Positions 1,176 through 9,583 of a stretch of 22,212 nucleotides of DNA are shown in pieces. The stretch is from assembly GCA_016926735.1 (NCBI GenBank), contig JAFGOA010000068.1:1-22212 (forward strand). Reading direction: 5' to 3'. Within the stretch, counting starts at the first letter, position 1; each line of letters opens with the position of its first letter. A model generated the notes under the pieces. That model made no database searches, was not told where the DNA came from, and saw nothing but the letters and a program-made list of their open reading frames with translations. The DNA comes from Promethearchaeota archaeon. Its GTDB lineage: Archaea; Asgardarchaeota; Lokiarchaeia; Sigyniarchaeales; SOKP01. A program made the translations under genes and the position numbers.

Positions 1176-2720
1176 ATGGATAATACATATTTAGAGTACC
1201 AATCATCAAGAATAAGCGATATAGGAAGAAAATCAATACTAACAAAATCTAAAATAAAAAAGACTAATACATCTAAATTGGTATTTCAATTAAAGATGTG
1301 GAATCTCTTAAATAAATTACCGCTTTCTATAATTCTTCATAAATTTAATAAAAATTGTTTTTACTGTAAGCGTAGTTATGCTGAAACAATTATTGATTAT
1401 TATATTTCAAAAAAAATAGAATGTAAGAAATGCAGATTTGCTGCAAAGTTTAAATATCCCCTTGTATCATTTATTTTTCAATTAATCTCTAAAGGTCTTG
1501 GTATGCCAAGCGACTCTTTTAAAAAAATAATCAGAGAGAATAAACCTTTAAAAAGATTGATTTTAAATTATATGGAAGGTCTTGGAAGATATGGATTAAC
1601 AATTCCACAAATTCCTGGAGGACCAATAGTTACGTTATGGTCTATCACAGATAAATGTAATTTGAGATGTAAACATTGTTTTGTTCATCAAAATCAAATA
1701 AAGGATGAAATAAGTTTTTTTGATGCTTGCAAAGTAATTAATCAATTATATGAAGCAAAAAACTTTTCTTTAGGATTTTCAGGAGGAGAAGCATTACTAA
1801 AAAAAGATATTTTTAAGATAATGAAATATGCCTCTGATAAAGGAATGCATATCGCTCTTGCTTCCAACGGAACATTGATTACTAAAGAAGTTGCTTATAA
1901 AATAAAAGAAGCGGGTGTTAAATATGTTCAAATAAGTATTGATGGATTAGAAGAGGTACATAATCAAATCAGAGGAAAAGGAGTTTTTAAAAAAGCAATA
2001 AGAGGTATTAAAAATTGTCTTGAAGTTGGATTATATGTCAGTATGGACGTTGTAATTACCAAACTGAATTTAAATCAACTTGAAGACTTAATAAAATTAG
2101 CAAAATCTTTGAAAGTCCCTAAATTTGAAATCCTTGATTTTATTCCTTCTGGAAAAGCCTCCAAACATGCAAATATTGCATTGAGTCCATTAGAAATTGA
2201 ACATTTAGGATTAAAATTATGCAGATCATGGGAAAAATTAATTGAATCTGATTATCCCTTCTCTTTATCATATAAAAACCCTCATTTCGCGAGAATTGTA
2301 TCTCAAAATATTCCAAATTTACAACTTATGCCCTTTTTTAAAGGTTTATTTCCTAAAAATGCTTTAAAATTCTTTAATTTTTCAAAGAGGCTTTCCAAAG
2401 GAATTCATGATGATCAATCTCCATTTGGACCCTTTATGACGGGATGTGAACCGGGATTTTATGTAATTCATATTGACCCATCACTGAATATAAATCCATG
2501 TCCATTTAATCCTATCTATTTAGGAAATCTTAAAAAAAATCATATTAAGGATATATGGGATAAATCTTCTGTTTTAAATACTTATAGAAAATTGAAATTT
2601 GATAAGAAATGTGGAAAATGTATGTATAAGATAGTATGTGGAGGATGTCGAGCAAAAGCATATCTTGCATTTAATACACATTCAGCACCAGATCCTTCTT
2701 GTATTTTAAATTGCAGATAA
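1176..2720 (+). CDS. Radical SAM protein with C-terminal SPASM domain and long N-terminal extension (possible GMGT synthase-like family)
   Basis: CNLRCKHC (CxxxCxxC), SGGE, SNGT, QISIDG; SPASM cysteines GCEPG..PC..CGKC..VCGGCRAKA..DPSC. The N-terminal extension carries CFYC and CKKC. The subfamily call is inference. Confidence 0.9.
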   Translation: MDNTYLEYQSSRISDIGRKSILTKSKIKKTNTSKLVFQLKMWNLLNKLPLSIILHKFNKNCFYCKRSYAETIIDYYISKKIECKKCRFAAKFKYPLVSFIFQLISKGLGMPSDSFKKIIRENKPLKRLILNYMEGLGRYGLTIPQIPGGPIVTLWSITDKCNLRCKHCFVHQNQIKDEISFFDACKVINQLYEAKNFSLGFSGGEALLKKDIFKIMKYASDKGMHIALASNGTLITKEVAYKIKEAGVKYVQISIDGLEEVHNQIRGKGVFKKAIRGIKNCLEVGLYVSMDVVITKLNLNQLEDLIKLAKSLKVPKFEILDFIPSGKASKHANIALSPLEIEHLGLKLCRSWEKLIESDYPFSLSYKNPHFARIVSQNIPNLQLMPFFKGLFPKNALKFFNFSKRLSKGIHDDQSPFGPFMTGCEPGFYVIHIDPSLNINPCPFNPIYLGNLKKNHIKDIWDKSSVLNTYRKLKFDKKCGKCMYKIVCGGCRAKAYLAFNTHSAPDPSCILNCR

Positions 2721-3399: not shown

Positions 3400-4293
3400 T
3401 TATTTAAAATCTAAATTTCTCTTGGTCCTATTATTTGGATTAGCATAACAATAAAGACAACTATGATAACATATCCAATCTTTTCCATAGCCTCCAATAT
3501 CTTTACTTTTAGTACAACCACAATATTCTCTCTGACCTGGATCTTTAGCTGTAGATAAAGGGATATTCCATAATTTTGATAGAAAATTTCCATCAACACA
3601 ATGAGCTTGTTGTATACCATCAATTTTTAATAAATTTGGATTACAACAAGCAAATAAAGTTATATTATATTTTTTTGCAATTTTAACAAGCTCTTCCGTT
3701 ATTTTTTTCATCTCCTTATCGCTTATTTTATAATAATTAAGTGAAAATCTTTTGAATCTATTTTCTACTTTCCTATAATAAGTAGCGAATGAAATAGTAC
3801 ATTTAGTGATTCCAAAATTAGAAAATTGGTAAACAATTTCTTTGAAATCTTTAAGATTATTTAACAATATATTATTACTTCGGTAAAACACAATTGGATC
3901 AAATCTCCACATAATATGATCAGGAGAACTAATTTCAATCATTTCCTTCAATTGAGAAATACTTTCTTGAAGAGAAGGTGTATTTGGTTCTAAAATCCTA
4001 TCTACAGAATTTCTTGTAAATTGAAAATATACAGGAATTATCCTTTGTGAACTAAATAGGGTATTTTGAGAATAATTTAATAGTATTTCCCATTTATTCA
4101 AAAAAGGCTTAAAATTTTTTGACCATAATACAAATCCAGCAATATCATTTGGTTTAAGAGACACTGTATACACTTTTTTATTATATGGATTTTGAACATT
4201 TATATACTCTTTTTCAATCGCATCTTGAAATTTATCCATATAAAAAGCAGGTCCATCAGTTCTACGACTGAAACTAATAATTTGCTTATTCAT
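3400..4293 (-). CDS. DUF1848 family protein (C-terminal radical-SAM-like Cys cluster)
   Basis: N-terminal IISFSRRTDGPAFY, LWSKN, WRFDPI, and C-terminal KDPGQREYCGC..DIG..CYHSCLYCYAN, all typical of DUF1848. Confidence 0.9.
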   Translation of the reverse strand: MNKQIISFSRRTDGPAFYMDKFQDAIEKEYINVQNPYNKKVYTVSLKPNDIAGFVLWSKNFKPFLNKWEILLNYSQNTLFSSQRIIPVYFQFTRNSVDRILEPNTPSLQESISQLKEMIEISSPDHIMWRFDPIVFYRSNNILLNNLKDFKEIVYQFSNFGITKCTISFATYYRKVENRFKRFSLNYYKISDKEMKKITEELVKIAKKYNITLFACCNPNLLKIDGIQQAHCVDGNFLSKLWNIPLSTAKDPGQREYCGCTKSKDIGGYGKDWICYHSCLYCYANPNNRTKRNLDFK

Positions 4294-4318: not shown

Positions 4319-6052
4319 CTATAATAATCTTATTAGTGACCCAAATCCATATAATGTAGTAAGTGCTGAGCAAAAAAAGATTTGGATTATTATAAATGAA
4401 CTTATTAAAACTGAACTAATTTTACCAGTTTTATTATAAATTAAAGAGTTCATTAACATTACAACGAGACTTATAAGAAAAGCTGCCATAAAAGCAACTA
4501 TAAGAAATAATCCATAAGCTAAAAACATTAAAATAAGCATATGTATAATACCCATAGCGTTGACAATTACTAATTTAATGGCTGAAGATTTTATAAAATT
4601 TAACCTATCAAATACTACTTTTCTATAATATAATTCAAATACCAAATAAAAAGGATAAACACCATATGCCAATATAAAGGATATTATATTGTTAGGGGAA
4701 AAATAGGCAAATGGAAATGAAATAGAAAATGAGAAATATAAAATTAAAAAAATAGTAACTGAAATTATAGGATAAAGAATAACATTCTTTTCGAAGTGAG
4801 AAGATATTATATGTTTCAAATTTAATTTCGAAAAGTAATTTTTTTTTTTCCCATTTGATTTAACCCTTCCAATAATATAATTAATAGAACTTAGAACAAA
4901 AATTAATAATATTATCGCTACGGGTGCAATAAAAAGACCAGGTATTCCAAGTTCTCTAATAAAAAACACCCAAATCATTATAAATAAAATATATGATGTT
5001 AATATCGTAAATGAATTTTGAATACCATGAACAATTCTGTTATGCTTGCTTTCTTTTAATATTGTTGATTCTTCTTTTTCTATCTTAAAATATTGAGACA
5101 TTTTAATCATTACAGCAATGGTAACTAAAAATATTGAAAATAATGTTAAAAATAACAATACATAAACTTGAAGGTAAGTTAAAGATATAGGACCATTAAT
5201 TGAATCAGAACTAAAAAAAGATATTTCGAACCAATTTATTGTTTTTATTAAAACTTCATCTGCTAAAAGGAAGTGCGGACCACCTAAGATATGATATGTA
5301 ATATTTAACAATGTACAGTTGGTTAAATTATGAGCAACCAAAGCATTTTTTTTATATGGTACAGTATTATCATAAATCGAATGAATTACTAAAAGATTTT
5401 GAGGATTGGTTGAATTTATTATTTTTGCAGGTATATAGCTCATAAATAGATTACTTTCACTTATTCCTAATAATTGTGCTGAAAAGTTGACTACACCTGC
5501 CCAGGTTACTGTTGCTTTAAATCTATTATCTAATGCACTTGTCATCAAAGCAACCATTCCTCCAAATGAATGCCCAATAATTCCAATTTGAGAATTATTA
5601 ATTCTATTATACTCAGGAAGAGTTTCTATTTTATCTAATAATCTCGAACAATCTTGAGCAATGGCAGGTACATTTGTTCGGTTCTGATACTCATTATAAT
5701 TGATATCCAATAGTTCACCAGTACTTTCACCACTCCCTCTATAATCAACACTAACAACAAAAAATCCTCTTTTGGTTAGTTCTAAAGGAATTCTAGGATC
5801 CAAATCTTTTTGGCTACCAAGTCCATGAAGGAAAAAAATTAAAGGGTGTTGTTCTTGAAAATCCAAACTCTTCTTTGGAATATATAAATTAGCGTTTATA
5901 GTAGCTCCAGATGAGGAACATTGTATTTTTTTATAATTTATATAACTATTAAATCTATGATAGTATGAAAAACTAATGGAAAATATAAGTAGAAATATTG
6001 AGAAGATTAAAAAAAGATTTTTTCTTTTAGAATGATTATTTTTATTATTCAA
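4319..6052 (-). CDS. Membrane-anchored alpha/beta-hydrolase (S9-like serine hydrolase) fused to a multi-pass C-terminal membrane domain
   Basis: N-terminal hydrophobic anchor, HGLG oxyanion region, DYRGSGES, nucleophile elbow GHSFGG, candidate Asp (DNTV) and His (GGPH); about 7-8 hydrophobic helices after residue ~290. TTG start is uncertain. Confidence 0.8.
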   Translation of the reverse strand: MNNKNNHSKRKNLFLIFSIFLLIFSISFSYYHRFNSYINYKKIQCSSSGATINANLYIPKKSLDFQEQHPLIFFLHGLGSQKDLDPRIPLELTKRGFFVVSVDYRGSGESTGELLDINYNEYQNRTNVPAIAQDCSRLLDKIETLPEYNRINNSQIGIIGHSFGGMVALMTSALDNRFKATVTWAGVVNFSAQLLGISESNLFMSYIPAKIINSTNPQNLLVIHSIYDNTVPYKKNALVAHNLTNCTLLNITYHILGGPHFLLADEVLIKTINWFEISFFSSDSINGPISLTYLQVYVLLFLTLFSIFLVTIAVMIKMSQYFKIEKEESTILKESKHNRIVHGIQNSFTILTSYILFIMIWVFFIRELGIPGLFIAPVAIILLIFVLSSINYIIGRVKSNGKKKNYFSKLNLKHIISSHFEKNVILYPIISVTIFLILYFSFSISFPFAYFSPNNIISFILAYGVYPFYLVFELYYRKVVFDRLNFIKSSAIKLVIVNAMGIIHMLILMFLAYGLFLIVAFMAAFLISLVVMLMNSLIYNKTGKISSVLISSFIIIQIFFCSALTTLYGFGSLIRLL

Positions 6053-6136: not shown

Positions 6137-6382
6137 TTATTTTAAATCTCTCTCGGGATTTAGATCAATATTTTTGAAAATTTCTTCTATTTTATCAATA
6201 CTAATTAGATTTGTTTGATATAATTCCCGAATGAATTTATATGCAGCACATTCATATTCTTTTTCCCAATATTCTTGATCTTCATGATAAAAATTGCATT
6301 TATGACAAATAGTGTTTATTAATTGTCTATTTAATGGACTTATATCATCTTCATTTCTTATAATTTCATGTTCCTTAACCAA
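6137..6382 (-). CDS. Small Cys-containing hypothetical protein (CxxC-FY...EC motif), likely accessory to the upstream radical SAM enzyme
   Basis: 81 aa with TTG start preceded by GAGGT (gaggtatgaaaaTTG); motif ICHKCNFY..ECAAY; 43 bp downstream of the radical SAM gene on the same strand. Confidence 0.7.
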   Translation of the reverse strand: MVKEHEIIRNEDDISPLNRQLINTICHKCNFYHEDQEYWEKEYECAAYKFIRELYQTNLISIDKIEEIFKNIDLNPERDLK

Positions 6383-6425
6383 TTTTCATACCTCTTTAAT
6401 AGGAATTATTAATTGATAATATTTA

Positions 6426-7703
6426 TTATTTAATTATTTTTCCAAATTGATAACACTTAAAAGAATCTATTCCTTTTATACTATTCGTTTGTTTATAAGC
6501 TCTATATCTGCATCCTCCCCTACAATTATCAAGATATTCACATTCTATTTCAGCACATTTAAGTTCTTTAATATTCCAATTTAATTCCTTTTGAATGATT
6601 TCCCAAGCGTTTTTAAGATTAAGATCAAATACATTTCCTAAATTATATTCTGAAAAAAAACCACACTTAGTTATTTTTCCTTTTACATCAATAGCCATCA
6701 TATATGGACCACATGCATAATTTATTTCTTCTCCTTCTGAAGAAGATTCATAAATTACCCCCCATCCATAATTTTTAAGTATTTCACCCCCATCTTTAAA
6801 AGATATTTCATATTTTTCTCTGATATCTTTTGGAGTTTTATCATCGAATGTAGGAATATCGATTGACCAATTCTTAACTGTTCCAAGTGAAGTTATTAAT
6901 TTATAAATTTCATCAAACTCGCCCAGATTTTGTTTATGAATCATAGTGTTTATAGAAACACTGATGTTATTATCCATAAGGATTTTTATTCCTTTGATTG
7001 TATCTCGAAAACAATCTGAATTCCTAAAATCATTATGAGTACTTTCTAAACCATCAATACTTACAAATACTTCGAAATAATTTTCTTTCAAAAGGTCTAA
7101 AATTATTTGATCTTGTTCGTGGATAAGAGTACCATTAGTTAAAAGTACTTTTTGAAGAGGAAGATCTTTTAATTCTTCTAATAGATTCTTAAGTTTAGAG
7201 TATAGAAAAGGTTCTCCTCCGGTTAAAATAATCTTAATACCTTGTAATTCATAAAATTCTTTTATTAATTTAAATAAAACCTCCAATTCCATATTAATCG
7301 GATTTTTATCAGTTATATAACAATGTTTGCAAGTTAAATTACACTTTTCTGTAATATTTATCATTATATTCTTGAGATAAGGAGGATTTAAAGGATTTTT
7401 TTTTGGCAAGGTTATATGTTCATTAGTTATTATAGAAGGATCAGTTATCATTGTAGAATAAAATTGAATAACACCTATTTCATTATATTTTTCAAGTGCC
7501 TTTTTAATTTCAGATTCCTTATTTGAAGGGAATGAATTAATAATTTCTCTATTAGTTTTTTTTCCATTAATCAAGGATAATAAAGCATATGCCTCGTTAT
7601 CGATGATATATGACTCATCATTTTTTAAATCGTATATATTATAATCTTTATATTTCCTTAAAACTATATTCTTAAGAACATAAGGGAATAGTTCTAAATT
7701 CAT
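6426..7703 (-). CDS. Radical SAM/SPASM peptide maturase candidate with N-terminal PqqD/RRE-like domain
   Basis: CNLTCKHC, TGGEP, TNGT, VSIDG; SPASM cysteines ACGP..TKC..CAEIEC..NCRGGCRYRA..KC. The N-terminal ~85 aa (IYDLKNDESYIIDNEAYALLSLINGKKTNREII..KKALEKYNEIGVI) show the beta-strands plus winged-helix pattern of PqqD/RRE domains. Confidence 0.88.
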   Translation of the reverse strand: MNLELFPYVLKNIVLRKYKDYNIYDLKNDESYIIDNEAYALLSLINGKKTNREIINSFPSNKESEIKKALEKYNEIGVIQFYSTMITDPSIITNEHITLPKKNPLNPPYLKNIMINITEKCNLTCKHCYITDKNPINMELEVLFKLIKEFYELQGIKIILTGGEPFLYSKLKNLLEELKDLPLQKVLLTNGTLIHEQDQIILDLLKENYFEVFVSIDGLESTHNDFRNSDCFRDTIKGIKILMDNNISVSINTMIHKQNLGEFDEIYKLITSLGTVKNWSIDIPTFDDKTPKDIREKYEISFKDGGEILKNYGWGVIYESSSEGEEINYACGPYMMAIDVKGKITKCGFFSEYNLGNVFDLNLKNAWEIIQKELNWNIKELKCAEIECEYLDNCRGGCRYRAYKQTNSIKGIDSFKCYQFGKIIK

Positions 7704-7722
7704 ATTTAAAGGTAAATTCTTG

Positions 7723-7733
7723 ATATATAAAAA
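7723..7733 (-). promoter_or_regulatory. Putative TATA box for the radical SAM gene (leaderless-type spacing)
   Basis: The minus strand reads TTTTTATATAT about 20-30 nt upstream of the ATG at 7703. Weak evidence given the AT-rich background. Confidence 0.3.
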
Positions 7734-7896
7734 TGTTATCTTAATTTATTAAAAGGATGATAAATATATATCTAAGACGTCAAGACATTTCTTTTATGAT
7801 TTTTAAAATCAATTTCAGTAAAATTAATTAGATTTATAAAGGGATAAGATTTAAATTTGAAAGATAATCATATTAGATTAATTATAAAAAGAAAGA

Positions 7897-8022
7897 TTAG
7901 TAAACACCTAATAAGTCCAATTCTAACAGTTCCTGATATCTTTTCTTAGAATTAGCTTTTTTATATTCTCTAAGTATTTCCCAATTATTTCTACTGATTT
8001 CTATATTTTTATTGTTTTTCAT
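7897..8022 (-). CDS. Small 41-aa basic protein, possibly ribbon-helix-helix-like
   Basis: MKNNKNIEISRNNWEILREYKKANSKKRYQELLELDLLGVY. The ATG at 8022 is preceded by AAAGTGATTGAA (GTGA RBS-like) and is preferred over the track's TTG start at 8088. Confidence 0.45.
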   Translation of the reverse strand: MKNNKNIEISRNNWEILREYKKANSKKRYQELLELDLLGVY

Positions 8023-8126
8023 TTCAATCACTTTTTTTTCCTTAATAGTAAAAAATGCCTTTATGAATATAATATTTTTATAGACCAATTTTTAAAGAAT
8101 TAGTAAAAGTAAAAATAATAGGATTT

Positions 8127-8134
8127 AAAAAAAA
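8127..8134 (-). terminator. Possible oligo-T terminator downstream of the Cys-rich peptide gene
   Basis: T8 run on the minus strand starting 24 nt after the stop codon. Such runs are common in this genome. Confidence 0.25.
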
Positions 8135-8157
8135 GATTATATAAAATTAATTATTAT

Positions 8158-8277
8158 TTAGCAACCGCCGCCACATTTGCAAATACAACCACCACCACAC
8201 TTGCAACTGTTTGAGATGCATCCTCCTCCACATTTACAAGCAGCACTGGTAGTTTTTTCTTTTTTTACAATTTTCAT
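8158..8277 (-). CDS. 39-aa Cys/Gly-rich peptide with three CKCGGGC repeats; candidate radical-SAM RiPP precursor (or metallothionein-like peptide)
   Basis: Hand translation: MKIVKKEKTTSAACKCGGGCISNSCKCGGGCICKCGGGC-stop(TAA). ATG preceded by GTGAATAAA. The repeat copies differ only at synonymous third positions, and the core is locally GC-rich in an AT-rich gap. Confidence 0.9.
   Translation of the reverse strand: MKIVKKEKTTSAACKCGGGCISNSCKCGGGCICKCGGGC
8161..8238 (-). repeat. Three 21-nt coding repeats of CKCGGGC (8218-8238, 8185-8205, 8161-8181)
   Basis: TGTAAATGTGGAGGAGGATGC / TGCAAGTGTGGTGGTGGTTGT / TGCAAATGTGGCGGCGGTTGC on the minus strand. Confidence 0.95.
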
Positions 8278-8351
8278 TTTATTCACATTAAAATTTTAGT
8301 GTGTTAATATTTAATTATTAGAATATATTTTTAAATTCTGCGCTTATTAGA

Positions 8352-8391
8352 AATAATATGAAAAAATCATATAATAATATGAAGAAATCAT
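8352..8391. promoter_or_regulatory. Tandem 19-bp direct repeat (21-bp period), each copy containing the palindrome ATGA-N5-TCAT; putative operator
   Basis: AATAATATGAAAAAATCAT (8352-8370) and AATAATATGAAGAAATCAT (8373-8391), 18/19 identical, in the divergent region between the peptide gene and mtnA. Confidence 0.5.
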
Positions 8392-8548
8392 TACATATTA
8401 CTGAGATTTTTAAATATGAGAAAATTAGATAAAAGTATGAAAAGTATTAAAATAAATTATTCAAAAAATCTTTTATAAGGTTTTTTTTAGATTGAAGTAT
8501 TCATTAATTATAATTACAATTTAAATTAACATAAATAGTATAAATAAA

Positions 8549-9583
8549 ATGATTCCATCGATAGAATGGGTAAATCAAAATAATCGATCTATAGTCAAAA
8601 TGATTGATCAGACGGTTCTTCCCCATGAATTAAAATTTTTAGAGTTATCTGATTATAGAGATGTTGCAAAATCAATAAAAGTAATGAATATTAGAGGTGC
8701 TCCGGCAATAGGAGTTGCTGCTGCTATGGGAATGGCATTAGCAGCATTAGAATATAAAAATTTATCAAAAGATGATTTCCTAAAAAAAATGAAAGATGCT
8801 GCTAAAACGATTAGAATGACACGTCCAACAGCTTCTAATTTATTTTGGGCGTTGAATCGGATATTAGAAGTAGTTGATAAATCAATTGGTACTGTTAATG
8901 AAATTTGTGAAGAAGTTGTTGAAGAAGCAATATTAATGGCTCAGGAAGACATAATAGTTAATAAAAATATAGGAAAACATGGAGCAGAATTAATTAAAGA
9001 TGGAGAAACTATTTTAACTCATTGTAATGCAGGTTCTCTCGCAACTGTGCAATATGGAACTGCCTTAGCTCCTATTCGGACAGCTATTGAGCAGGGAAAA
9101 AAAATATCAGTTATAGCTGACGAGACCAGACCAAGATTACAAGGAGCAAGATTAACTGCCTTTGAATTAAATTATGATAATATACCTGTAAAAGTAATTT
9201 CTGATACTTCTTCAGGATTATTAATGAAATTAGGAAAAATAAATAAGATAATCGTGGGTACGGATAGAGTCACATCTGATGCTGTTTTTAATAAAATCGG
9301 TACGTATCTTGTAGCTTTAGCAGCAAAAGACAATAATATTCCATTCTATGTAGCAGCCCCCACTTCGACCTTATCCCTTGAAGAAACGATAGATGATGTC
9401 GAAATTGAACAACGAGAGGATAGTGAGGTATCATGTGTGTTAGGTAAAATACGAATTGTCCCTGAAGGTGTAGAATGTTTAAATTATGCTTTTGATATTA
9501 CAACATTTGAACTTGTCACAGGTATCATAACAGAAGATGGTGTATTTACAGCTGAAAAACTACTTGAAAAATACAGAAAATAA
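8549..9583 (+). CDS. mtnA: S-methyl-5-thioribose-1-phosphate isomerase (eIF2B-alpha-like family)
   Basis: DQTVLP, IRGAPAIG, TRPTASNL, THCNAGSLAT, DETRPRLQGARLT, GTDR, NKIGTY, NYAFDIT. Confidence 0.92.
   Translation: MIPSIEWVNQNNRSIVKMIDQTVLPHELKFLELSDYRDVAKSIKVMNIRGAPAIGVAAAMGMALAALEYKNLSKDDFLKKMKDAAKTIRMTRPTASNLFWALNRILEVVDKSIGTVNEICEEVVEEAILMAQEDIIVNKNIGKHGAELIKDGETILTHCNAGSLATVQYGTALAPIRTAIEQGKKISVIADETRPRLQGARLTAFELNYDNIPVKVISDTSSGLLMKLGKINKIIVGTDRVTSDAVFNKIGTYLVALAAKDNNIPFYVAAPTSTLSLEETIDDVEIEQREDSEVSCVLGKIRIVPEGVECLNYAFDITTFELVTGIITEDGVFTAEKLLEKYRK

Follow-up and report, generated by a model that had tools for sequence, protein, structure and literature searches.

SuiB, the streptide enzyme, forms a C-C bond by coupling Lys to Trp, PapB, the freyrasin enzyme, uses Cys-X3-Asp, and the cores handled by SkfB and AlbA (sporulation killing factor and subtilosin) adopt a nested hairpin. 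The nearest tested archaeal case found is the CrpA/CrpB/CrpC system of Methanococcus voltae (TIGR04463; PMC13692751, 2026), in which CrpC, a thioether-forming enzyme with seven SPASM Cys, acts according to the available part of that report on a large protein of 28.8 kDa with C-x-x-Q/D motifs and ranthionine links. The screen in the same report covered proteins of 100 aa or more, and its available part does not mention Asgard archaea. To the extent that this source describes it, the Crp system resembles the locus analysed here in having an archaeal RRE-radical SAM enzyme, a seven-Cys SPASM domain, a leader with repeated Cys motifs and a suspected metal role, but the candidate substrate here is a peptide of 20-42 aa with CKCxxxC units, accompanied by a separate three-Cys helper. 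No protein in the genome reaches the TIGR04463 cut-off and the enzyme at 6426-7703 is absent from the six hits to that model.

The window, meaning the whole stretch of 22,212 nucleotides that was analysed, contains the following features:

8158..8277, minus strand: gene for the putative 39-aa precursor peptide, with a 13-aa Lys-rich leader, three C-K-C-x-x-x-C units (CKCGGGC here) and a C-terminal Cys
6426..7703, minus strand: 425-aa RRE-radical SAM-SPASM enzyme, with a predicted RRE-like domain at about residues 1-85, C121/C125/C128 and SPASM Cys 331, 347, 383, 388, 394, 398 and 417
6137..6382, minus strand: helical accessory protein of 81 aa in which C26, C29 and C45 are invariant
7897..8022, minus strand: 41-aa ORF, real and genus-restricted
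8356..8382, minus strand: proximal NikR-like site of the form TCATAY-N15-TCATAY, immediately upstream of the TATA-like box
8414..8440, minus strand: distal TCATAY-N15-TCATAY site, NikR-like
8324..8335, minus strand: TATA-like box (TTTAAA), recognised by eye in upstream regions, its position conserved before family f1 precursors

The first-pass annotation had listed four minus-strand ORFs including the 39-aa peptide and had suspected an Asgard-like host. All four are present, and the host is Lokiarchaeial, with closest relatives named Promethearchaeota or Lokiarchaeota. The reading preferred here, with a probability of roughly 0.55, is a minimal RiPP pathway in which the RRE-radical SAM enzyme cross-links a CKCxxxC peptide by thioether formation, with a nickel-related function and a three-Cys helper. 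The tiny, unannotated gene is probably the precursor of a previously undescribed cross-linked, metal-related peptide.

The enzyme matches the Pfam Radical_SAM model PF04055 with 79 bits (cut-off 29.5), and the CxxxCxxC residues C121, C125 and C128 are invariant in 109/109 family sequences. The seven SPASM Cys are invariant in the same 109 sequences and align with the SPASM domains of anSME and TigE, while the Pfam SPASM score lies below its cut-off (14.8 vs 21.5). Their number is not diagnostic of the chemistry, since TigE shows the same count in the alignment and is not a thioether enzyme. The AF2 model of the enzyme has a pLDDT of 92 and places strands and three helices at residues 6-82. The top structural matches are the RRE-rSAM-SPASM RiPP maturases SuiB, CteB, SkfB and TigE. 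Residues 6-422 superpose on SuiB (Z 25.8, rmsd 4.2, 385 residues aligned) and the full-length model on SkfB (Z 25.6, rmsd 5.0, 343 aligned), in both cases with the RRE region included and starting at residue 6 or 11. SkfB is also the best PDB sequence match (E 1e-27), and profile matches extend to the N-termini of CteB, SuiB and TigE. The N-terminus had been called PqqD-like: the Pfam PqqD model fails to detect it, matching 1/109 family members (E 0.023) and nothing in the own genome, whereas the full-length predicted structure supports an RRE-like fold. An N-terminus unlike an RRE had been named as grounds for refuting the proposal, and the structural model speaks for a predicted RRE-like domain at residues ~1-85.

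None of the NCBIfam family cut-offs is reached by the enzyme. The system shares with SCIFF (CteA/CteB; TIGR03974; PDB 5WGG/5WHY) a short Cys-rich precursor, a fused RRE-rSAM-SPASM architecture and the structural match, but the core is different, TIGR03974 gives 35 bits against a cut-off of 425 and two of the six catalytic-proximity positions agree with CteB. These positions (Y/T/T(S)/S/G/F), assigned by our own motif-based mapping, agree with SkfB at 3-4/6: positions 1-4 resemble SkfB, and positions 5-6 (G, F) are unlike both CteB (H, Q) and SkfB (Q, L). The likeness to SkfB/AlbA lies in the sequence match, the superposition and positions 1-4; on the other side stand the 7-residue module that forms the core here, 67 bits against a cut-off of 850 for AlbA, and the lack of conserved cyclisation, protease or export genes at this locus. 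The StsB model gives 81 bits (cut-off 625). PapA/PapB (NF047865) is similar in its modular Cys motifs behind a leader, which are processed repeatedly, but the score is 85.5 bits against a cut-off of 340 and the core of the window peptide contains no Asp or Glu. SuiB/SuiA (PDB 5V1T) offers the top structural match, RRE region included, and an invariant core Lys. Aryl coupling of the SuiB or cyclophane type is excluded, since no aromatic residue is present in the 84 precursor units collected here.

Translation of the precursor gene at 8158-8277 yields MKIVKKEKTTSAACKCGGGCISNSCKCGGGCICKCGGGC, with CKCGGGC units at 8218-8238, 8185-8205 and 8161-8181. In a six-frame search of the 3.88-Mb genome this was the sole segment carrying at least two CKCxxxC units, and the chance expectation for one CKCGGGC is 7e-5. 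Comparison with six further copies of 39 aa gives a total of 100 synonymous and 13 non-synonymous codon differences, which indicates that the ORF is coding and under selection. Across 40 aligned precursor homologues M1, C14, C16 and C20 are invariant, and nothing is constant except the basic leader and the C-K-C-x-x-x-C unit. The leader is Cys-free, has a fixed length of 13-14 residues and is kept in Asgard and bacterial-like loci. Lys2 is found in 83/84 units and a C-terminal Cys in every precursor, features that the search patterns partly impose. Linkers between internal repeats vary from 1 to 5 residues, precursor length ranges from 20 to 42 aa, and the core is very small and almost unchanging, with no sign of diversification. 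The (CKCGGGC)x3 core proposed at first is accurate for this locus but too narrow for the family: the conserved unit is CKCxxxC, most lineages have a single one, and multi-unit precursors are confined to the Lokiarchaeial family of this host.

A peptide this rich in CxC, with 9 Cys among 39 residues, might also be an unmodified metallothionein-like binder or chaperone that is co-regulated and co-inherited with an enzyme acting on the three-Cys protein or another target. This explanation appears improbable. No Pfam family, metallothioneins included, matched the peptide at E 0.1 and no Atlas match exceeded 0.76, although a 39-aa query makes this a weak test. The fixed-length Cys-free leader and the existence of a 20-aa single-unit form with just three Cys also argue against it, as does the distribution of the genes. 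A loose CKCGxxC DNA pattern matched 84/161 genomes, mostly as single chance or zinc-finger-like occurrences, and was replaced by a leader-anchored pattern. This leader-plus-core pattern was found in 22/400 Asgard genomes, all 22 of which have the enzyme (21 whole, one as a contig-edge fragment), so that the peptide was never seen apart from an enzyme with an RRE-like domain; conversely, 30/35 enzyme genomes contain the precursor, these counts including related genomes that are not independent. The precursor was not found in G032 and G037, where the enzyme lies at a contig edge, in G039, where the enzyme is frameshifted and the small gene truncated, in G153, which is 97% complete with intact genes, or in G309, which is 80% complete. 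Reading the TGA stops in G039 as selenocysteine was rejected, because the breaks consist of a frameshift and of a stop that does not fall on a Cys position. On the side of an unmodified binder, the peptide is encoded on another contig or far from the enzyme in several genomes, and the most constant neighbour of the enzyme is the small 81-aa gene, present at 27/27 Lokiarchaeial-class loci.

Among metagenomic, mostly bacterial-like orthologues of the enzyme, a 20-aa single-unit precursor lies beside 26/42 and the 81-aa gene beside 27/42, compared with 0/38 control rSAM loci for either. Shine-Dalgarno-like purine runs precede the 24 distinct metagenomic precursors inspected, and seven metagenomic loci with flanking room had no precursor. 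The idea of an archaeal system had to be widened accordingly to bacterial-like loci, and maturases without neighbouring Cys-rich peptides, another ground for refutation named at first, were not the rule. Taken across genomes, these patterns support the original grouping of peptide, RRE-rSAM-SPASM enzyme and 81-aa protein as one co-inherited system, as judged from gene content. A plasmid search with the bacterial homologue gave no match. The tree is a quick, midpoint-rooted version from which five intended outgroup rows are absent, and no direction of transfer is therefore claimed.

In other lineages the 81-aa protein is duplicated, arranged in tandem or built of two domains. No curated family was found for it, and fold searches (Foldseek best E 3.8; VIA-align best Z 3.5) gave neither a clear match nor proof of a new fold. 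Weak MerR-like fold rows were not trusted, and weak NMD3 and SMEK_N matches below cut-off were rejected. Complex prediction with enzyme and peptide, in which the 81-aa protein was scored as partner, returned 0.00, a value that speaks neither for nor against binding. It probably serves as a helper that forms dimers and binds a metal or a cluster.

The precursor gene has its own putative promoter elements, as seen on inspection of upstream regions, and the TTTAAA box may serve as one of them. A strict TCATAY-N15-TCATAY site lies upstream of 19/20 family f1 precursors and 12/31 cbiM/nikM genes, against a background of 6/2434 genes in the own genome. With a broad pattern set post hoc, the search of 2961 upstream regions in the own genome gave two sites only for cbiM and for the precursor together with the gene divergent from it. 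TCATAC is the NikR half-site of E. coli, and the deltaproteobacterial NikR signal resembles the TATTAC-N13-16-(G/T)TAAT inverted repeats that are present before 6/10 other Asgard precursors. Three NikR_C proteins are encoded in the genome. The family f1 site is a direct repeat, unlike the inverted repeats of the cited NikR operators, and the importer that shares it may carry Ni or Co; cbiM is present in 92/135 genomes, and many genomes without the cassette have cbiM with the site. In Asgard archaea a NikR-family repressor probably ties precursor expression to nickel supply, to judge from these upstream regions, and the NikR-like site before the precursor makes a role of the product in nickel (or cobalt) handling most likely. 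A promoter common to the Ni/Co importer would also suit an unmodified binder.

Antimicrobial or signalling roles are common among characterised sactipeptides, and a thioether RiPP for competition or signalling, such as a sactipeptide-like bacteriocin or quorum signal, would fit the lack of enrichment of NikR-like sites at bacterial-like loci (0-2/42 vs 0-4/38 controls). The site would then belong to a general regulator and metal binding would be incidental. This is slightly less probable again than an unmodified binder: neighbour-gene comparison found no leader peptidase, exporter, immunity or cyclisation gene conserved with the cassette, the core does not diversify, and the double sites in the own genome are confined to the precursor and cbiM.

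For the preferred pathway, we infer that the RRE would bind the leader, a 5'-deoxyadenosyl radical would take a hydrogen from the unit, and a substrate Cys held on the open iron of auxiliary cluster I would close at least one thioether per unit. A link from sulfur to the alpha carbon of a small variable residue is slightly favoured because the variable residues here are all Gly, which has no beta carbon, and the catalytic-proximity residues give a further indirect hint; the invariant Lys or another Cys would be the alternative. With Gly at the acceptor positions beta or gamma links are precluded, and in the window peptide only Lys, Cys or flanking residues could take a non-alpha, ranthipeptide-type linkage, as read from its sequence. 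The leftover free thiols would bind metal. The same pair of genes could instead act on the Cys/Lys unit by radical chemistry that forms no thioether and requires the three-Cys protein. Candidates would be a Cys-derived heterocycle, a thioaldehyde, oxidative decarboxylation of the C-terminal Cys, and epimerisation or C-C coupling at Lys. The near-constant Lys2 and terminal Cys, partly imposed by the patterns as they are, fit such a reaction, as do SuiB as best structural match, proximity positions 5-6 that match neither CteB nor SkfB, and an obligatory accessory protein of no known family. Internal repeats with variable linkers imply that the chemistry works on internal units, which counts against terminal decarboxylation alone, and thioether formation has precedent for Cys-rich cores paired with seven-Cys SPASM enzymes. 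Non-thioether chemistry is considered rather unlikely, though more probable than the other two alternatives. A bolder version of the metal-related reading is speculative and judged unlikely: a nickel-regulated class of ribosomal metallopeptides in Asgard archaea and anaerobic bacteria, in which the radical SAM enzyme and a previously unknown three-Cys helper would install a novel cross-link (for example Cys sulfur to the invariant Lys, or Cys to a Cys carbon) in the seven-residue CKCxxxC module to pre-organise thiols for Ni, the module having been multiplied into a metallothionein-like chain in one Lokiarchaeial family.

The initial impression that this core belongs to no characterised RiPP family agrees with the absence of a curated family or paper in our searches. 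No description of the core was found in the literature (subscription journals not covered), the motif strings returned 0 papers, and no radical-SAM RiPP characterised in an Asgard archaeon came up in the literature searches. In the available part of the Precord 2023 data (PMC10288494) the motif strings had 0 matches in the spreadsheet of 3,422 precursors, while the enzyme could still sit among the 14,550 UniProt ids given there. A synthesisable 20-aa candidate substrate with three Cys, a soluble enzyme and one helper make the chemistry directly testable, and a putative operator common to a Ni/Co importer gives a clue to function of a kind seldom available for orphan RiPPs. If correct, the preferred reading would connect nickel homeostasis in relatives of eukaryotes with RiPP chemistry.

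Other parts of the neighbourhood are more local. The four genes noted at first as co-directional do not generally keep this arrangement: in many genomes the precursor gene points the other way or lies elsewhere. The 41-aa ORF, initially counted as part of the system, has homologues only in genus g1 among all loci compared (G000, G036 and, twice, G038); a role as second substrate or core part was rejected for this reason, and by its distribution it is probably outside the core system. A membrane alpha/beta hydrolase downstream (4319-6052) was considered as leader peptidase; it adjoins only genus g1 loci, so that a general part is unsupported and a local role possible. The increase from one to two or three units within one Lokiarchaeial family shows a way in which metal peptides with Cys repeats can come about.

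The 3.88-Mb genome (26% GC) has Promethearchaeota/Lokiarchaeota as its closest named relatives, in line with the Asgard-like host suspected in the first-pass annotation, and all four minus-strand ORFs described there were found at their coordinates. The features on which the analysis is built are the following.

8158-8277, minus strand: 39-aa precursor peptide, a basic Cys-free leader followed by three CKCGGGC units
6426-7703, minus strand: RRE-radical SAM-SPASM enzyme, 425 aa (Pfam Radical_SAM above cut-off, Pfam SPASM weak)
6137-6382, minus strand: 81-aa small protein with three Cys
8356-8382 and 8414-8440: two TCATAY-N15-TCATAY sites upstream of the precursor

The earlier view of a precursor-enzyme-small protein system was largely right, except that the 41-aa ORF included in it is confined to loci of the host genus. 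The cassette is marked by co-inheritance, domain anatomy, an invariant unit and a common promoter site. A putative thioether-forming, metal-related RiPP system is the favored reading, with a probability of roughly 55%.

The 39-aa peptide is the only six-frame segment of its genome with at least two CKCxxxC units, and the composition-based chance expectation for CKCGGGC is 7e-5. Codon differences from six other 39-aa copies are synonymous in 100 cases and non-synonymous in 13, which marks the peptide as the product of a real gene. The precursor family comprises 51 distinct sequences with one (n=34), two (n=1) or three units (n=16); 41 of them have their first Cys at residue 14 and 10 at residue 15. 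The 84 units, collected with a pattern that fixes Cys spacing and K/A at unit position 2 (freer patterns gave the same result), follow the consensus C-K-C-(G/K)-x-x-C, where x is a small residue. All of them lack aromatic residues, and the linkers between them are 1-5 residues long. Multi-unit precursors are confined to the Lokiarchaeial family that includes the host (f1). In a quick, unrooted 56-row tree, the f1 enzymes group as a clade with full support and a long stem. This is compatible with repeat expansion within that lineage, though it is not proof of it. One genome (G036) carries two near-identical precursor copies (C124 2826-2942 and C275 25128-25244), each with two promoter sites.

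The enzyme is present in 27 of the 161 genomes of the host's class. Seven further genomes came from searching 400 genomes of the phylum with a profile; this search scored few candidates per genome, missed four genomes already known to have the enzyme and may undercount. With G052, where a contig edge leaves just a C-terminal fragment, the total is 35. A leader-anchored precursor pattern matched 22 of the 400 genomes (one match for the reversed control), and every one of the 22 encodes the enzyme. Precursors with 14-residue leaders add G006, G007, G278, G280, G281 and G306-G308, and a precursor is found in 30/35 enzyme genomes, placed upstream, divergently, kilobases off or on a separate contig. 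None was found in G032 and G037, where the enzyme lies at a contig edge, in G153 (97% complete, genes intact) or in G309 (80% complete), which also has no clear small gene. G039 (L152, C38 about 66000-67570) has a frameshift early in the enzyme gene, near the N-terminus, together with a truncated small gene, and no precursor was found there; this locus is either a decaying cassette or the result of assembly errors. The small protein gene adjoins the enzyme in all 27 class loci. G278, G280 and G281 have a tandem pair of such genes, and G306-G308 hold a two-domain form apart from the enzyme. In a 120-aa database protein (P0287) the three-Cys domain is joined to an N-terminal stretch resembling the RRE, which may be a genuine fusion or an artefact of a deletion; as a fusion, it would hint at functional linkage.

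Scanning metagenomes with distant homologues gave 80 loci, namely 42 orthologue loci and 38 with unrelated radical SAM enzymes, which served as controls. The orthologues share 37-73% identity with a Thermodesulfovibrionales protein, and one of them (L096) groups with Asgard in the tree. A 20-aa precursor with one unit at its C-terminus (e.g. CKCKSSC, CKCKASC) adjoins 26 of the 42 orthologues and a small gene 27, while the control loci yielded no small genes and two chance pattern matches without leader. Contig ends truncate nine of the 16 loci without precursor; the other seven have room for one. Shine-Dalgarno-like runs precede all 24 distinct single-unit precursors printed; these runs and the grouping with the Thermodesulfovibrionales protein are why the loci are called bacterial-like. 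Neighboring Cys-rich peptides, as anticipated for homologous enzymes, occur in both the Asgard and the metagenomic sets. An unmodified metallothionein-like peptide would suit the Cys-rich units, and is improbable beside an enzyme that accompanies the precursor so regularly.

The SAM-cluster Cys residues (121, 125, 128) and seven C-terminal Cys residues (331, 347, 383, 388, 394, 398, 417) of the enzyme are invariant in 109 aligned homologues. TigE likewise has seven SPASM Cys, so this number is not diagnostic. In the AF2 model (pLDDT 92) the N-terminal domain consists of strands plus three helices. Residues 6-422 superpose on SuiB (Z 25.8, rmsd 4.2, 385 aligned) and residues 11-410 on SkfB (Z 25.6, rmsd 5.0, 343 aligned), and Foldseek ranked SuiB, CteB, SkfB and TigE at the top. 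The proposed PqqD-like N-terminus agrees with this predicted structure but not with Pfam PqqD, which matched one of 109 homologues (E 0.023); the model suggests an RRE-like domain. Genes and model liken the cassette to the RRE-rSAM-SPASM thioether systems CteB, PapB, SkfB/AlbA and CrpC, yet the enzyme scores below the curated cut-off of every thioether-system family tested, TIGR04463 and TIGR03974 included. The enzyme and three distant homologues also fall below all NCBIfam cut-offs among the best 25 families. Six catalytic-proximity positions (Precord et al., PMC10288494), assigned by motif, carry Y/T/T(S)/S/G/F and are nearer SkfB than CteB, a weak likeness because the residues at positions one to four are widespread across the superfamily. 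The core motif had no match in the literature searched and is absent from a set of 3,422 sacti/ranthipeptide precursors (PMC10288494).

In the proposed mechanism, the RRE would capture the leader, the enzyme would abstract hydrogen by radical chemistry and the thioether might be closed by a Cys held at the open iron of auxiliary cluster I, by analogy with seven-Cys CrpC, for which such closure has been argued (PMC13692751). As all three variable positions are Gly in the window peptide, a link to them must use the alpha carbon, and a beta or gamma link would need Lys, Cys or a flanking residue. Different radical chemistry on the same precursor is rather unlikely. A second radical SAM/SPASM protein with N-terminal Cys pairs (1176-2720, plus strand, 514 aa) lies 3.4 kb from the cassette; its best NCBIfam match is AhbD-like (207 bits, cut-off 500), and it was absent among conserved neighbors of the cassette.

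The metal-related part of the thioether reading draws on the promoter site. Derived from precursor promoters alone, it lies within 250 nt upstream of 19/20 f1 precursor genes, mostly right before a TATA-like box, against 6/2434 genes of the own genome. The strict site precedes 12, and a broader post-hoc pattern 27, of 31 cbiM/nikM genes of the Ni/Co importer (the best 30 of 92 matches plus that of G039). Seven genomes, belonging to two genera, have cbiM within about 5-20 kb of the cassette. Three NikR_C proteins are encoded in the own genome, two with His-x-His...Cys motifs, which we take to be metal ligands. In E. coli, the NikR operator has TCATAC as its half-site (PMC7055735); however, the half-sites in f1 are directly repeated, and the importer's metal could be Ni or Co. 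TATTAC...TAAT inverted repeats at 6/10 non-f1 Asgard precursors resemble the deltaproteobacterial NikR signal described upstream of nikMQO (PMC545781). Bacterial-like loci showed no enrichment of NikR-like sites (0-2/42 vs 0-4/38 controls).

No protease or exporter conserved with the cassette was found among its neighbors; the leader may therefore stay on the product or be cut off by housekeeping enzymes. A bacteriocin or signal is an improbable product in this setting. Of the 74 enzyme loci, 10 have a flavin amine-oxidase/phytoene-desaturase-like FAD oxidoreductase next to the cassette, and they fall on either side of the domain boundary (Asgard L014, L017, L018, L020, L023; bacterial-like L077, L082, L086, L097, L100). 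This oxidoreductase may serve in tailoring or may simply have been transferred along with the cassette; the own-genome copy lies elsewhere. An ATP-grasp protein, which may be an additional modifying enzyme of that clade, is immediately 3' of the precursor in six bacterial-like loci (L077, L078, L081, L082, L087, L100). In the Thermodesulfovibrionales-like clade the context is iron/redox, not nickel, with rubrerythrin/ferritin-like (L064, L065, L069, L071, L072, L076, L083, L084), ferredoxin, nitroreductase-like and 2-oxoacid oxidoreductase-like genes. ZIP/ZupT-like metal transporter genes lie 3' of the small gene in G307 and G308 (L184/L185 1710-2492) and, judged by eye, 3' of the precursor in G155 (L041 2235-2462). 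Downstream of the cassette in the host genus are a membrane-anchored alpha/beta hydrolase (peptidase S9-like; window 4319-6052, minus strand) and a DUF1848 gene (3400-4293, minus strand). A divergent IF-2B-family gene (8549-9583, plus strand), presumably methylthioribose-1-phosphate isomerase-like, shares the intergenic region holding both sites with the precursor, and the family adjoins the precursor in four genomes.
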